Shown piece after piece: positions 44,955-51,055 of a DNA stretch of 64,000 nt. The notes beneath the pieces were generated by a model. The model searched no databases and was not told the DNA's origin. It worked only from the letters and a program-made list of their open reading frames with translations. This stretch comes from an uncultured Candidatus Saccharibacteria bacterium. GTDB lineage: Bacteria; Patescibacteriota; Saccharimonadia; Saccharimonadales; Saccharimonadaceae. The stretch's first letter is position 1. Each line of letters begins with the position of its first letter. The stretch covers positions 188-64,187 of the forward strand of contig CAZRIZ010000001.1 of the NCBI GenBank assembly GCA_964600285.1, given 5' to 3'. A program made the position numbers and the translations under genes.

Positions 44955-45041
44955 GCGCACATGGCGGAATTGGTATACGCGCTACCTTGAGGTGGTAGTG
45001 GGAGCAATCCTGTGGAGGTTCAAGTCCTCTTGTGCGCACCA
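44955..45041 (+). tRNA. tRNA-Leu (anticodon GAG), encoded CCA
   Basis: The acceptor stem is GCGCACA/TGTGCGC. The anticodon stem is CTACC/GGTAG with loop TTGAGGT. It has a long variable arm and is 87 nt long. The promoter TTGTTC-17-TAAAAT lies upstream. Confidence 0.95.
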
Positions 45042-45066
45042 AATCACTCAACCGAGTGATTTTTTA
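45042..45066 (+). terminator. Intrinsic terminator after tRNA-Leu(GAG)
   Basis: AATCACTC-AACC-GAGTGATT followed by TTTTT. Confidence 0.7.
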
Positions 45067-45134
45067 GTGGGTAATTTTGTTTATCATATCAGGGCGTTTT
45101 GGCTAATCCAAGCTTAATACACGGGCACATTTTA

Positions 45135-45163
45135 TTGAGTTTTAAGGCAATTTATGTTATAAT
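45135..45163 (+). promoter_or_regulatory. Promoter with an extended -10
   Basis: TTGAGT (45135-45140), 17 nt including TGt, TATAAT (45158-45163). The predicted start site near 45170 gives a leader of about 180 nt before the ATG at 45349. Confidence 0.55.
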
Positions 45164-45239
45164 GATAATATTGTGGTCTTGGTGGAGCTACTAGCATGTT
45201 AAATGTCAAGTTAGATTGATAATGCCGTATTTTAATCTG

Positions 45240-45287
45240 TCTCTGGAATAAGCTTCGTGTCTATTGATTTGAAGCTTATTCTGGAGA
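45240..45287 (+). ncRNA. Long leader hairpin (17-bp stem, 14-nt loop) upstream of the ORFan at 45349
   Basis: TCTCTGGAATAAGCTTC (45240-45256) pairs with GAAGCTTATTCTGGAGA (45271-45287). That gives 15 Watson-Crick pairs plus 2 adjacent G-U pairs, and the G-U pairs exist only in a plus-strand RNA. No U-run follows. Confidence 0.55.
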
Positions 45288-45348
45288 TAGACTCTCCAAG
45301 AAAGCTGGCGAGCTGAACGCAAACAGCCTTAAGCTGTCAGGAGGTAAT

Positions 45349-45825
45349 ATGTTTATTAGGGTAGCCCTTAACTCCGATGATCAGTTTTTCTTAAGATACT
45401 TATATCGCGAAAAGGAGTACCCGCGGGAGTTGAATTTTTCAAGAATTCCGTTTTTTAGCGATAGCGTTCGAAAATACGACAATGACAGTAAGCCGTTCGC
45501 CGATTTTCTAGAATGTTACCAGAAAATCACAATCATTCACTGTATAGATGGTGCTAAAGTTGTGATTCCGGCTGTAGTATCTGTATGGCTCGGTCACAAA
45601 TGCTATCTCGAATTGTGGCCAACTAGTGAGGAGCTTGCGGCCCACAAGACGAACTTTCAACCTACGGCGAACCTTCTTGCATCGAGCACTATTTATGTAT
45701 CCGGCAGCAAGCCCATGTTCGCACGAGACGAGCTAGAAAGGTCGTTCCGCACAGTACTCGATGTATTTACGGGAGGAATGTACCAAATCGCCAGAGAGCG
45801 GTATCGTGTGCGTTTAAGCCCCTAA
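45349..45825 (+). CDS. Hypothetical protein (158 aa)
   Basis: CAGGAGGT RBS. The product is soluble and I recognise no family. Confidence 0.65.
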   Translation: MFIRVALNSDDQFFLRYLYREKEYPRELNFSRIPFFSDSVRKYDNDSKPFADFLECYQKITIIHCIDGAKVVIPAVVSVWLGHKCYLELWPTSEELAAHKTNFQPTANLLASSTIYVSGSKPMFARDELERSFRTVLDVFTGGMYQIARERYRVRLSP

Positions 45826-45837
45826 CTTGATGAACAC

Positions 45838-45863
45838 AACCCCGGCCACATGTCGGGGTTTTG
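45838..45863 (+). terminator. Intrinsic terminator
   Basis: AACCCCGGC-CACAT-GTCGGGGTT followed by TTG. Confidence 0.7.
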
Positions 45864-45911
45864 CAGTATATAGCGCTTTGTGGTATTATTCTCTAGCACT
45901 TACAAGGTTTT

Positions 45912-45988
45912 GGGCGACTAGCTCAGTTGGCTAGAGCGTCTCGTTTACACCGAGAAGGTCGGGGGTTCGAGCCCCTCGTCGCCCACCA
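45912..45988 (+). tRNA. tRNA-Val (anticodon UAC), encoded CCA
   Basis: The acceptor stem is GGGCGAC/GTCGCCC. The anticodon stem is TCTCG/CGAGA with loop TTTACAC. The T-arm is GGTTCGAGCCC. The promoter TTGCAG-17-TATTAT lies upstream. Confidence 0.95.
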
Positions 45989-46185
45989 CAGCAAAGAAAC
46001 CTTTAGTTTCCGTCCCCAAGGCGGATTTTTTGATTTAAGTTTCGGGTTGAGCGAGCTACTTGCTGAAGCATGTTCCTCAATTTTTCGCAGTAAAGCTGGT
46101 TTATTTTGTCAGTAAGTTTTATTGCAAAAACCTTAATAATATGAGATAATCTTAGAACCTAAAAAGGAGGGAGGAGGACTTTAAA

Positions 46186-46671
46186 TTGAAGTATTTACAC
46201 GGAGTTGAAATTGCTCGTCCTGGTGGGATTGATAACTTGGCTAAGGAGCTAGTTAGAGGATCGTGGCATGAATTGAGCCGTTTCATGGATGAACTAGGGA
46301 TGCAACTTCTTGGCCAATCCATAACAGACAGGCAAAGAGATCGTCCCATTCTAGCTAGTCTGGGAAAAAAGGCTAGTGAAAGTCTGTTGCTGTCGGCTAG
46401 GTTGATAACAACAACTAGGTCGGCTCGAAAAGTGCGTTATGAGCTTGTGGATTTTGCTAAGCCAGTCTCGCGCTTGCGCTATGACGCTATCTTGAGATTC
46501 TTGAATTTGCTCAGTCTTGGTGTGCATCAAGATAGGCGTTTCAGAAAGAAGAATGGTAGTCTGGCACTATTCCATTTGAACCAAGCTAGGGTGGCGGTTG
46601 GTTACATGTTACGCATATCAAAGAAGCATCTTGATTTCAGTCGAGTTCCATTAATTGACTTCAATGAATGA
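46186..46671 (+). CDS. Hypothetical basic protein (161 aa)
   Basis: TTG start preceded by a very strong RBS (AAAAAGGAGGGAGGAGG). It is predicted to be helical, is Arg/Lys-rich, and matches no family I recognise. Confidence 0.65.
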   Translation: MKYLHGVEIARPGGIDNLAKELVRGSWHELSRFMDELGMQLLGQSITDRQRDRPILASLGKKASESLLLSARLITTTRSARKVRYELVDFAKPVSRLRYDAILRFLNLLSLGVHQDRRFRKKNGSLALFHLNQARVAVGYMLRISKKHLDFSRVPLIDFNE

Positions 46672-46692
46672 CTGCGGTATTAAATCGCTCTT

Positions 46693-46718
46693 GCCCGAAG
46701 TTGTTGCTTCGGGCTTTT
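46693..46718 (+). terminator. Intrinsic terminator
   Basis: GCCCGAAG-TTGTTG-CTTCGGGC followed by TTTT. Confidence 0.7.
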
Positions 46719-46758
46719 AATTTTAACTTGGTAGGGATATAATTTAGTTGTCACTTTT

Positions 46759-46835
46759 GGGAAATTAGCTCAGTTGGCTAGAGCGCAGCATTCACATTGC
46801 TGAGGTCACAGGTTCAAGCCCTGTATTTCCCACCA
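46759..46835 (+). tRNA. tRNA-Val (anticodon CAC), encoded CCA
   Basis: The acceptor stem is GGGAAAT/ATTTCCC. The anticodon stem is CAGCA/TGCTG with loop TTCACAT. The T-arm is GGTTCAAGCCC. Confidence 0.95.
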
Positions 46836-46966
46836 AGAAAGAACAATTTTCGAAGAAGTCGCCCACTGGGGTGGCTTTTTGATTTACGTTATGTACGTAA
46901 GCATAAGCTCTCTGGTTCACAGTCATGATATAATATAGTTAGAATAATACAAGGAGCATAACTTCA

Positions 46967-47521
46967 ATGGCAACACAACCACAACCACCAGTCACCCCAC
47001 CAACAGAGGGCGCTGATACGCAGTATGGTCCCGCACCAGTCGATCAGAATACACCGTATCAGCAACAGCCCGTTAACCAACAATATTTCGCTCAACCACA
47101 AGCTGCACCAGTTCAATATGTTGTTATGGCACAATCACTCAAGGGCGTCCGTGGTTGGCTCCTATTCTTCACAGTTTCTTTTGCCATCGCTGGTTTGGGT
47201 TACATAGGCACCTTCTTCGCCTCGATGGGTGACGACAACACAAATATTGTTAACCTTTTGTTTATGCCAGTCTTGGCCGGTCTTTCACTTGCGGCGACTG
47301 TGACAATTGCAATGGAAAAGAAGATTGGTAAATGGCTTGGAATTGCCGTATGTGCTACTGTCGCCGTTCACGGTGCGATTAATACGATTGTACAGTCTTC
47401 CGCAAGTGGTGAGACTGCGCCTATGATAATGTCTGGCATTGTCGCTGGAATAGTCTCGTCTGGGTTGATGGCGTTATACTTCTTTGTTTCACGCCGAGTC
47501 AAAGAAACTCTTATTAAATAA
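46967..47521 (+). CDS. Q/P-rich N-terminus, multi-TM membrane protein, paralog 1 (184 aa)
   Basis: MATQPQPPVTPPTEG...QNTPYQQQPVNQQYFAQPQ...RGWLLFFT, followed by about 4 TM helices and ending SRRVKETLIK. It may be DUF2569-like, but I hold that only with low confidence. Confidence 0.75.
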   Translation: MATQPQPPVTPPTEGADTQYGPAPVDQNTPYQQQPVNQQYFAQPQAAPVQYVVMAQSLKGVRGWLLFFTVSFAIAGLGYIGTFFASMGDDNTNIVNLLFMPVLAGLSLAATVTIAMEKKIGKWLGIAVCATVAVHGAINTIVQSSASGETAPMIMSGIVAGIVSSGLMALYFFVSRRVKETLIK

Positions 47522-47553
47522 GGCTTACTTTGGGTTACTAAGTTGAACTCGAA

Positions 47554-47605
47554 ACAGCCGGCCTAGTGCCGGCTGTTTGATTTATGGCCATAAATATGAT
47601 AAAAT
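47554..47605 (+). promoter_or_regulatory. Terminator-promoter module, copy 1
   Basis: The hairpin ACAGCCGGC-CTAGT-GCCGGCTGT plus a T-run overlaps TTGATT (47577-47582), 17 nt, TAAAAT (47600-47605). Confidence 0.6.
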
Positions 47606-47678
47606 AGAAAGATAGCACATTGCTGATGTCACAGTCATGATATAATGTGGTCAGAATAATACAAGGAGCACAACTTTA

Positions 47679-48260
47679 ATGGCAACACAACCACAACCAC
47701 CAGTCACTCCGTCAACGGGTGGTACTGACGCACAGGCCAATACGCAATATGGTCCCGCACCAGTCGATCAGAATACACCGTATCAGCAACAGCCCGTCAA
47801 TCAACAACATTTCGCTCAACCACAAGTTGCGCCAGTTCAGGGCGCTGTTACGGCACAGCCTAGAAAGGGTATTCGGGGCTGGCTATTATTCTTTACGATT
47901 ATGTTTGTCATAGCTGGTTTTAGTACCATCACCAATATTTTCATCTCAATAGGCAATGATGTAAATATCGCCAACCTTTTATTCGGGCTAATCTTTGCCG
48001 GTCTTTCTATTGCGGCGGCCGTAACGATTACAATAGAAAAGAAGATCGGTAGATGGCTTGCGATTGCTGCCTGGGCTTGTCGTATTGTCCAAACTATATT
48101 CGACCTCATCTTCAACTTTGATATTACTGTTGAGGCTTCCAATAATAATCTAAGCGTACCCTTGCTGATCTTTGGCATTGTTTTTGCAATGGCTTTACTC
48201 GCTCTCCCACTACTTTATTTCTTAACTTCACGCCAAGTCAAAGAAACGCTTATTAAATAA
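47679..48260 (+). CDS. Q/P-rich N-terminus, multi-TM membrane protein, paralog 2 (193 aa)
   Basis: The N-terminus (MATQPQPPVTP...YGPAPVDQNTPYQQQPVNQQ) and C-terminus (SRQVKETLIK) are near-identical to paralog 1. The TM core has diverged. Confidence 0.75.
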   Translation: MATQPQPPVTPSTGGTDAQANTQYGPAPVDQNTPYQQQPVNQQHFAQPQVAPVQGAVTAQPRKGIRGWLLFFTIMFVIAGFSTITNIFISIGNDVNIANLLFGLIFAGLSIAAAVTITIEKKIGRWLAIAAWACRIVQTIFDLIFNFDITVEASNNNLSVPLLIFGIVFAMALLALPLLYFLTSRQVKETLIK

Positions 48261-48292
48261 GGCTCACTTTGGGCTGCTAAGTTGAACCCGCA

Positions 48293-48369
48293 ACAGTCGG
48301 CCTAGTGCCGGCTGTTTGATTTATGGCCATAAATATGATAAAATAGAAGGATAGCACATTAATAATGTG
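48293..48369 (+). promoter_or_regulatory. Terminator-promoter module, copy 2, plus a palindrome at the start site
   Basis: It carries the same hairpin, then TTGATT (48316-48321), 17 nt, TAAAAT (48339-48344). This is followed by the perfect palindrome CACATT-AAT-AATGTG (48355-48369) just upstream of the RBS of gene 48392. Confidence 0.6.
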
Positions 48370-48391: not shown

Positions 48392-49021
48392 ATGAAAACA
48401 AACAATGGCCTGACAGAGTCGAATACAGACAACATTGTTCTGAGTGGGCTTGAGTCCAAAATACTTGTAGCTGTAGTTAAGCGAGCCATCAGAGAGTTTT
48501 GTCCTGGTGTTACTTACGGAACCTTTATTTTGGACGTTCAACGCTGGAACCATAAGGCGGAGAATGTTCTGCGATTCGATCTGCCATGGGGCTGTTTGTT
48601 TAAGGATCCACTTGAGGGCGAAGTAACTAATTTTTCTGTTTCAGCTAAATCAGCGATTGATTTGTTTCTTTGCGACGAAGCTTACGATGAAGTCTCGACT
48701 GGTATCTATGCTTTTGGTGAGAGCAAGGTCTTGGTTGCCAACACCTCTTCAGAACGGTTCCTTGCTTCATTCTACGGAAATTTTCCACCTAATGAGGGTG
48801 GTATAGAGTGGAAGGAGGAAAAGAAACTGTGGAGTGGTGCTGATTCTGTCTTGGCGGTGGTCGCCGAAACCTTGATGCATTTGCGACCACATGATTCTAG
48901 ACTATCTAACGAAGAACGTCGTGCCCTGTTCCAATATGGCGCTCCGTTTGAGATTAGGAGTTTCATTAGGGGTGCGCTTAGGGCTGAAGGCTGGAACGCC
49001 CATTATTCCTCTGACGCATAG
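48392..49021 (+). CDS. Hypothetical protein (209 aa)
   Basis: AAGGAGGGG RBS. The product is soluble and I recognise no family. Confidence 0.65.
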   Translation: MKTNNGLTESNTDNIVLSGLESKILVAVVKRAIREFCPGVTYGTFILDVQRWNHKAENVLRFDLPWGCLFKDPLEGEVTNFSVSAKSAIDLFLCDEAYDEVSTGIYAFGESKVLVANTSSERFLASFYGNFPPNEGGIEWKEEKKLWSGADSVLAVVAETLMHLRPHDSRLSNEERRALFQYGAPFEIRSFIRGALRAEGWNAHYSSDA

Positions 49022-50959: not shown

Positions 50960-51055
50960 ACAGTAAGCGTCTGCCACTTGATTTTTTTGTCGTCTTGTGC
51001 TAGTATTGATTTATACGCAAAGAAACCACTCCGCAAAAAAGGGTGGTTTTTGATT

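Follow-up and report, generated by a model that had tools for sequence, protein, structure and literature searches.

Alike at the ends, diverged in the core: a tandem pair of DUF2569-like membrane-protein genes in a Saccharibacteria genome

The DNA considered here (the window) is a stretch of 64,000 nucleotides (nt) from an uncultured Candidatus Saccharibacteria bacterium: GenBank assembly GCA_964600285.1, contig CAZRIZ010000001.1, positions 188 to 64,187 of the forward strand, with all coordinates below counted from its first letter. Its + strand carries two head-to-tail units, at 46917-47620 and 47629-48362, each made up of a leader of ~50 nt, an open reading frame (ORF) for a small membrane protein, and a 3' flank; the two genes are called copy 1 and copy 2. 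The features of the locus are listed next (RBS stands for ribosome-binding site and aa for amino acids; G001 and G002 are two congeners whose genomes were compared with the locus).

46759..46835, + strand: tRNA-Val(cac), called by ARAGORN, with a 100% blastn match in G001 and G002; the conserved left neighbour of the insertion site
46917..46966, + strand: leader of unit 1; extended -10 promoter TG-A-TATAAT at 46926-46934, RBS AAGGAG at 46951-46956
46967..47521, + strand: copy 1, 184 aa, a canonical family member with its N motif (residues ~31-66) and C motif (~170-184) intact
47024..47101, + strand: codons 20-45 of copy 1, with silent sites homogenised relative to copy 2; a probable conversion tract
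47489..47620, + strand: last 10 codons of copy 1 and 3' flank of unit 1, 92-97% identical to 48228-48359, with a terminator hairpin at 47552-47577
47577-47605, + strand: duplicated copy of the orf209 promoter (TTGATT-17-TAAAAT with an upstream TG), within the 3' flank of unit 1
47621..47628, + strand: inter-unit junction (GCTGATG...), a sequence that exists only if the tandem arrangement is real
47629..47678, + strand: leader of unit 2; the extended -10 promoter of leader 1 recurs (TATAAT at 47641-47646), as does the RBS AAGGAG
47679..48260, + strand: copy 2, 193 aa, a fast-evolving paralogue that keeps the C motif and four hydrophobic segments
48261..48362, + strand: 3' flank of unit 2: terminator hairpin at 48292-48316, then the native orf209 promoter at 48316-48344 (TTGATT-17-TAAAAT, upstream TG)
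48392..49021, + strand: orf209, the native right neighbour of the insertion, 37% identical to orf225 of G001
50960..51055, no strand: the empty native site in the gap between typA and rarA, with a bidirectional terminator left behind; it aligns with the sequence that follows the stop codon of the DUF gene in G002

The preliminary description of this locus, made from the letters of the DNA, spoke of two units of leader, gene, terminator and promoter, nearly identical at both ends and strongly diverged in a transmembrane core. Both ORFs, the terminator-like hairpins (at 47559-47575 and 48292-48316) and the promoter-like sites are found as described, and a repeat search of the window returns direct-repeat blocks at spacings of 712, 721, 724 and 739 nt. 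A per-site identity profile, taken from a global alignment of the two units, confirms that divergence is not uniform: the leaders stand at 90-93% (45 of 50 positions identical) and the stretch 47035-47094 at 90-100%, the core at 47125-47490 falls mostly to 30-70%, and identity is regained over the last 30 nt of coding sequence (93%) and the 3' flank (92 of 99 positions). The near-identity that had been claimed for the last ~30 nt of coding sequence and ~100 nt of 3' flank thus stands, as do the diverged core and the difference in length. At the other end, where near-identity had been extended from the leader through the first ~150 nt of coding sequence, it holds for the leader and for codons 20-45 but not for codons 10-19, a variable patch (60-70% identical) that includes an indel of 12 nt and interrupts a 5' part conserved elsewhere. 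The difference in length (184 against 193 aa) is composed of four codons gained in that patch and, in the core, of one lost and six gained. A compensated frameshift as the source of core divergence is ruled out: one single-frame alignment spans the full length of both copies. Separately, copy 2 is faced by the duplicated orf209 promoter (47577-47605) in addition to its own extended -10 element, and may have two promoters.

What kind of protein do these genes encode? Both copies score below the gathering cut-off (26.5 bits) of the Pfam family DUF2569 (PF10754), copy 1 at 23.7 bits (E = 7.2e-5) and copy 2 at 17.2 (E = 0.0074). A DUF2569 match at E <= 0.01 is found, however, in 31 of the 37 aligned family members (best E-value 4.8e-8), and the match to the hidden Markov model covers positions 54-141 of the profile's 143, up to the C-terminal end and including the YF..S.RVK.T tail. 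Matches of this frequency argue for classing both window proteins, on their sequences, as members of a distant DUF2569-like subfamily of Saccharibacteria (TM7), four-helix membrane proteins that are not unrelated to DUF2569. NCBIfam has no match for either copy; PADLOC and PHROGs have none for copy 1, copy 2 or orf209, and a defence or phage origin was dropped on that account. A literature search returned nothing on the function of DUF2569, YdgK or Saccharibacteria membrane paralogues.

The family has few members, and they are patchily distributed. Among 5.8 billion proteins a search found 201 relatives, 180-200 aa in length; a profile run against 1.84 billion cluster representatives yields 427 clusters at 50% identity, and 22 of the 80 genera in the window's GTDB family have a match. 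Among species-representative genomes there are 163 encoding stretches, 80 of which were kept (the counts of species loci given below cover these 80); all 80 are Saccharibacteria, comprising isolates and metagenome-assembled genomes (MAGs) of Nanosynbacter, Nanoperiomorbus and Saccharimonas. The family is restricted to Saccharibacteria.

Two segments of these proteins hardly change. The N motif QQPVNQQYFAQPQAAPVQYVVMAESLKGVKGWL and the C motif LYFFVSRRVKETLV are near-invariant (mean entropy 0.28 and 0.54 bits, in alignments of 37 and 115 homologues); core positions in the same alignments run to 1.4-2.6 bits, with the outward loops most variable (2.2-2.6 bits). An AlphaFold2 model (mean predicted local distance difference test, pLDDT, of 80) has ~60 disordered N-terminal residues followed by four long helices, at residues 64-86, 91-115, 120-147 and 151-174 of copy 1 (pLDDT 85-98 there); four hydrophobic segments are present in both copies. 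A fold search of the Protein Data Bank with this model returned nothing below E = 1. Topology was predicted by the positive-inside rule: the N terminus, the loop between transmembrane helices 2 and 3 (TM2-TM3; MEKK) and the C tail (SRRVKETLIK) are placed in the cytoplasm, and the two outward loops are predicted to be short (4-6 residues) and acidic. Since the predicted cytoplasmic termini and TM2-TM3 loop bear nearly all of the invariant residues, it is most likely this face that does the protein's job, probably by binding a conserved partner, and the helices and the two short outward loops would be free, or pushed, to vary. One consequence bears directly on the mosaic: with both motifs near-invariant throughout the family, any two members will show alike ends and a diverged core at the level of protein. 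The mosaic of the window pair is therefore, in part, the product of family-wide purifying selection.

The two paralogues are each other's closest relatives: they group as sisters both in the full-length tree (support 100/98) and in a tree of the core only (91), and the best match of copy 2 among 5.8 billion proteins is copy 1 (57% identity). The proportion of differing synonymous sites (pS) in the core is 0.53 between the copies (corresponding to a synonymous divergence, dS, of ~0.9), as against 0.73-0.77, which is saturated, to orthologues; core transitions and transversions between the copies stand at 70:42. The two have not evolved evenly. The terminal branch is 0.67-1.03 for copy 2 and 0.14-0.23 for copy 1, making copy 2 the faster by 3-5 times, and copy 2 changes six near-invariant residues of the N motif (Y40H, A46V, Y51G, V52A, S57P and L58R in copy-1 numbering; the stretches compared are QQHFAQPQVAPVQGAVTAQPRKG against QQYFAQPQAAPVQYVVMAQSLKG). 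The long branch and the lost N-motif residues mark copy 1 as the canonical gene and copy 2 as a fast-evolving spare. The core of copy 2 is also lower in G+C (0.41 vs 0.47), with a drift to A+T and an excess of G-to-A and C-to-T changes. The ratio of nonsynonymous to synonymous divergence (dN/dS) between the copies is ~0.55 in the core (0.497/0.907) and 0.14 in the N motif; against orthologues silent sites are saturated.

Does constraint on protein suffice to explain why the ends of the two units are alike? Silent sites provide the test. Where copy 1 and copy 2 have the same residue, they also use the same codon in 31 of 34 cases at codons 20-45 and 175-184, as compared with 30 of 58 in the middle (Fisher p = 8e-5); for codons 20-45 taken alone, 23 of 25 identical residues share their codon. 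The non-coding leader and 3' flank are identical at 137 of 149 positions, the third positions of the middle at 31 of 58 (p = 2e-9). Silent and non-coding sites that are so much more alike at the ends than in the core imply ends younger than the core, and that requires gene conversion or some other form of recombination. The contrast is specific to the pair: when copy 1 is compared with its orthologues, the same-codon fraction in the patch of codons 20-45 is just 0.42-0.45, so that a nucleotide-level constraint is not in evidence there, and an RNA element or overlapping ORF beneath the N motif is ruled out by the freedom with which the orthologues' silent sites vary. Tandem arrays of greater age in other lineages have lost the likeness of their non-coding flanks, and only the C motif is similar; the window pair, with flanks still alike, is therefore younger or still converting. 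Constraint on protein alone is thus insufficient for this pair, and recombination at the ends is needed as well. Gene conversion, rather than the import of a foreign core, is the more probable source of the young ends.

The preliminary description had put forward two explanations of the mosaic, homogenisation of the ends by gene conversion and diversifying selection on the core. The excess of silent-site and flank identity, found where orthologues show no silent conservation, supports the former. The latter is not demonstrated: dN/dS in the core lies below 1, and such encouragement as it has is indirect, coming from allelic cores on 97-100% identical flanks in relatives and from the variability of the outward loops. 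The idea of a surface or receptor-like protein, also raised there, is a conjecture, and the predicted outward loops measure no more than 4-6 residues. (A technical note on mechanism: a diversity-generating retroelement is ruled out as the source of core variation. Core mismatches are not adenine-specific but spread over all four bases, with 27 of 137 at A, and the reverse transcriptase family RVT_1 has no match in the 717-kb, 35-contig genome, control genomes being positive.)

The surroundings of the pair tell how it came to be where it is. The gene order rarA, DUF gene, typA, with typA convergent, holds for most of the 80 species loci and for the nearest relatives as well, and in most Saccharibacteria the gene is there in single copy. 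The congener G002 conforms, with its DUF gene at the native rarA/typA site. In the window and in G001, rarA and typA stand back to back, and all that lies between them is the bidirectional terminator that follows the DUF gene in G002; this leftover terminator indicates that the native, rarA-linked copy was deleted in both. The orf209 homologue of G001 follows tRNA-Val(cac) at a distance of 146 nt, and the interval has no DUF gene; this interval, from the tRNA gene to orf209, is exactly where the window has its two units. The stretch TTGATTTATGGCCATAAATATGATAAAATAGAAGGATAGCACA, which is the promoter portion of the 3' flank repeat, has its homologue in G001 in the promoter that precedes the orf209 homologue. 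The repeated segment accordingly includes the native orf209 promoter, which means that the duplication happened in place. (The product of orf209 itself, at 48392-49021, has no match in Pfam, NCBIfam, PADLOC or PHROGs; its homologue in G001 occupies the same position, upstream of typA.)

Where did the gene at the new site come from? Copy 1 is 64% identical to its homologue at locus L092 and 46% identical to that of the congener G002; more generally, the window proteins are 60-64% identical to a clade of sewage-metagenome loci (L086/L089/L092). The housekeeping neighbour behaves differently: RarA of the window is 85% identical to that of G002 (85-86% within the genus) and at most 66% identical to those of the L086/L089/L092 clade and others. 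Leader 1 is closer to the leaders of the sewage clade (71-77%) than to that of G002 (65%), and the N-terminal signature MATQP.PQPPV.PP and the layout of the leader are common to the window proteins and that clade. Location, levels of identity and similarity of leaders thus speak for a horizontal origin: on these comparisons, re-acquisition from a distant lineage is likely, and is preferred over relocation of the native gene. As an observation apart, the genus has a conserved trio of tRNA genes, tRNA-Leu, tRNA-Val(tac) and tRNA-Val(cac) (window 44955-46835; G002, locus L104, 3727-6904), and the small ORFs between these tRNA genes are wholly different among genomes, which looks like orphan-gene turnover.

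These elements can be assembled into a history of four steps: 1) The native copy between rarA and typA was lost, as synteny shows. 2) A copy resembling those of the L086/L089/L092 clade, with its own leader, would have been placed between tRNA-Val(cac) and the orf209 promoter, probably by horizontal transfer. 3) A segment of ~710 bp comprising leader, gene, terminator and native orf209 promoter was then duplicated in place, a step that synteny likewise shows. 4) The core would have diverged, with copy 2 changing 3-5 times faster and letting go of the N motif, while gene conversion would have kept the two units ~92% identical over leader, codons 20-45, final 10 codons and 3' flank. The ends would still have been able to recombine because constraint on the protein keeps them similar; the core would have become too diverged for pairing. 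Taken as a whole, from native loss through re-acquisition and in-place duplication to core divergence with end-restricted conversion, this history is probable, although a good deal short of certain.

Several considerations weigh against it. An approximately unbiased test does not reject a clade that joins the window copies to the congener G002 (p = 0.30), so that vertical descent is also compatible with the data. The pair is carried by one genome only, which means that the duplication is not datable and that conversion is not separable from a later replacement by a foreign core; an exact-match scan of Joint Genome Institute (JGI) metagenome contigs with a 29-mer from the shared 3' flank gave 0 matches, and hence no strain-level relatives of the window for comparison. 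Part of the identity of the leaders appears to be regulatory constraint, the leader being ~75% conserved among orthologues. Relaxed constraint and diversifying selection account equally well for a core dN/dS of 0.55. Finally, the suggestion of a cytoplasmic partner derives from predicted topology and conservation only, with no solved fold that matches.

Relatives of the window put the pair in perspective, and in two ways. One concerns alleles. Three sets of sewage-metagenome contigs from one population (L089/L097, L092 and L098) have rarA and typA that are 97-100% identical and cores that are 50-65% identical; the breakpoints between L089 (3223-3690) and L092/L098 fall at the two conserved motifs, near +190 and near +520 nt, the same boundaries as those of the window pair. 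Three cores on flanks so nearly identical imply that whole cores have been exchanged by recombination at conserved ends in the L089/L092/L098 clade. Variation of the core among strains, which it had been suggested to look for, thus exists in this related population. General hypervariability of the core is not supported: where the flanks share 90% identity or more (438 species pairs), the core has a mean identity of 0.938 and the flanks one of 0.935, with 5 outlier pairs only.

The other concerns arrays. Two to three tandem copies are found at 20 of the 80 species loci, and these stem from at least two further independent duplications. Independent arrays of three or two copies lie at L065-L085 (for example L065, 2619-4573) and at L054/L059/L061/L062 (for example L054, 3950-5153). 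The other arrays comprise one canonical copy (dN/dS 0.07-0.13) and long-branch copies (0.30-0.39) that are without the N motif and keep the C motif; the extra copies have been kept across 4-14 species. Values of 0.30-0.39 sustained across species indicate that extra copies are usually functional genes under relaxed constraint. By analogy with them, copy 2 of the window is most likely a functional spare under relaxed constraint too, its functional role being presumed from that likeness. Some loci hold further variants. Directly upstream of the canonical copy at 22 loci of a Nanosynbacter-like clade (for example L011, 2981-3751) is a gene for a ~250-aa Gln/Pro-rich four-helix membrane protein, which is fused in frame to the canonical copy in four species (L016, 3221-4561; L018, L025 and L066), giving a 447-aa ORF; BLAST detects no similarity between this upstream protein and the canonical one, of which it may or may not be an extremely diverged paralogue. 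A 382-aa representative, P0122, has three matched stretches, suggesting that fused tandem copies exist.

How do other accounts of the window pair fare? One does without recombination: a single old duplication, after which purifying selection preserved the two protein motifs and regulatory constraint the flanks. The near-invariance of both motifs across the family, the ~75% conservation of leaders among orthologues and the older arrays in which the C motif alone stays similar are all as this account would have them; it is very improbable nonetheless, seeing that silent sites in codons for identical residues are 92% identical at codons 20-45 and ~52% in the middle, that orthologues share codons at only 42-45% in the same patch, and that the two 3' flanks match at 93% even though the promoter copy behind copy 1 has no obvious need there. 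Recombination of another kind is the substance of a more serious competitor, in which the duplication is recent (its age given by the ~8% divergence of the flanks) and one core was afterwards replaced by a diverged allele from another strain, the ends serving as recombination anchors. Replacement of just this kind has taken place in the nearest clade (L089/L097, L092 and L098), with breakpoints in the same places and a core pS between L089 and L092 that is saturated (0.77). Against it for the window pair, the core-only tree still pairs copy 1 with copy 2, and at a pS of 0.53 and with transitions still well ahead of transversions they are less diverged than any pair of alleles or orthologues. 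Neither does a search of 5.8 billion proteins contain a closer relative of copy 2, though a donor could be unsampled. This competitor is unlikely, if a good deal less so than the account without recombination. As for copy 2, it might be a redundant gene in decay towards a pseudogene, evolving fast purely because constraint has gone. The six altered residues of the N motif, the longer branch and the A+T drift of the core would all be expected of such a gene, and yet the 193-codon frame is intact, promoter, RBS, hydrophobic segments and C motif are retained, core dN/dS is not ~1, and comparable extra copies elsewhere have persisted across 12-14 species at dN/dS of 0.30-0.39; decay is rather improbable.

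A more adventurous proposal is that in some Saccharibacteria the family constitutes a recombinational variation module: the N and C motifs would double as anchors at the level of DNA for swapping whole transmembrane cores between tandem copies, between strains and with alleles coming in (through the natural DNA uptake of these bacteria). Phages, bacteriocins, membrane-targeting toxins or the host bacterium would supply the pressure, and each swap would give a conserved adaptor a changed membrane or outer face; such a module, with two cores in one genome, is what the window pair would represent. Strain-level core alleles on identical backgrounds, outward loops that are the most variable part of the protein, and the recurrence of tandem duplication in several lineages lend this proposal some attraction. 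On the other side of the ledger, copy 2 is no silent cassette, having its own promoter, RBS and start codon; the copies number only two; the outward loops are just 4-6 residues long; in most pairs of Nanosynbacter species, core evolution does not outpace that of the flanks (mean identity 0.938 vs 0.935); dN/dS is below 1; and no defence or phage family is matched. The proposal must be considered doubtful, somewhat more so than decay of copy 2. There is, lastly, the prosaic thought that assembly has strung together two strain alleles of a single-copy gene. The assembly is of the MAG type, in 35 contigs, and related populations do hold several alleles with common ends. Against an artefact, the flanks differ at ~8% of positions and have not been collapsed, a specific junction (47621-47628) links the orf209-promoter copy to leader 2, conserved synteny extends along the contig to either side of the pair, and complete genomes from other lineages contain genuine tandem arrays; of all these explanations it is the least probable.

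What, then, is the interest of the locus? The window pair is a fairly ordinary instance of gene birth and death, and the processes called upon (tandem duplication, asymmetric divergence, end-restricted conversion, probable xenologous replacement) are not new in kind; what is new is an example of known processes in an uncharacterised family restricted to Saccharibacteria. As such it makes a clean worked example, running from loss and re-acquisition at a tRNA-flanked site to in-place duplication, asymmetric divergence and end-restricted gene conversion. Saccharibacteria are tiny epibionts, and very few of their lineage-specific conserved genes have a known role. In this setting the family is notable for the synteny of rarA, gene and typA across many genera, for an unusually invariant, predicted cytoplasmic motif inside a low-complexity region, for a core that can differ completely between near-identical strains, and for tandem duplication on at least three independent occasions; together these make it a reasonable candidate for genetics in tractable Saccharibacteria strains. 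The invariant motif and the strain-level core alleles of the sister clade are the most notable by-products of the analysis.

It remains to set the pair beside better-known systems. Like DUF2569, the family of the E. coli inner-membrane protein YdgK, the window family consists of small proteins with four transmembrane helices; unlike the Pfam model, it adds a cytoplasmic Pro/Gln-rich N-terminal region of ~60 residues, with its invariant motif. As to the manner of evolution, the tufA/tufB genes of enterobacteria are duplicated genes under partial concerted evolution by gene conversion. The window pair resembles them in that recombination within a genome would keep stretches of paralogues near-identical, silent sites included; it differs in being homogenised at the ends and flanks only, while the middle diverges and one copy accelerates, with a mosaic as the result. 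Mosaic genes with variable cores and conserved recombination anchors are familiar from naturally transformable bacteria, in pilE/pilS of Neisseria and in pneumococcal surface-protein alleles. With these the window pair has in common conserved ends around a diverged middle, and its relatives have alleles exchanged between strains on otherwise identical backgrounds. The likeness ends there. Antigenic variation from silent cassettes, as a candidate, was rejected: copy 2 has an extended -10 element, an AAGGAG RBS, an ATG and a full open frame, and where pilE draws on promoterless donor cassettes the window has two copies, each with a promoter of its own. What varies, moreover, is a transmembrane bundle with very short loops, rather than a large exposed domain.

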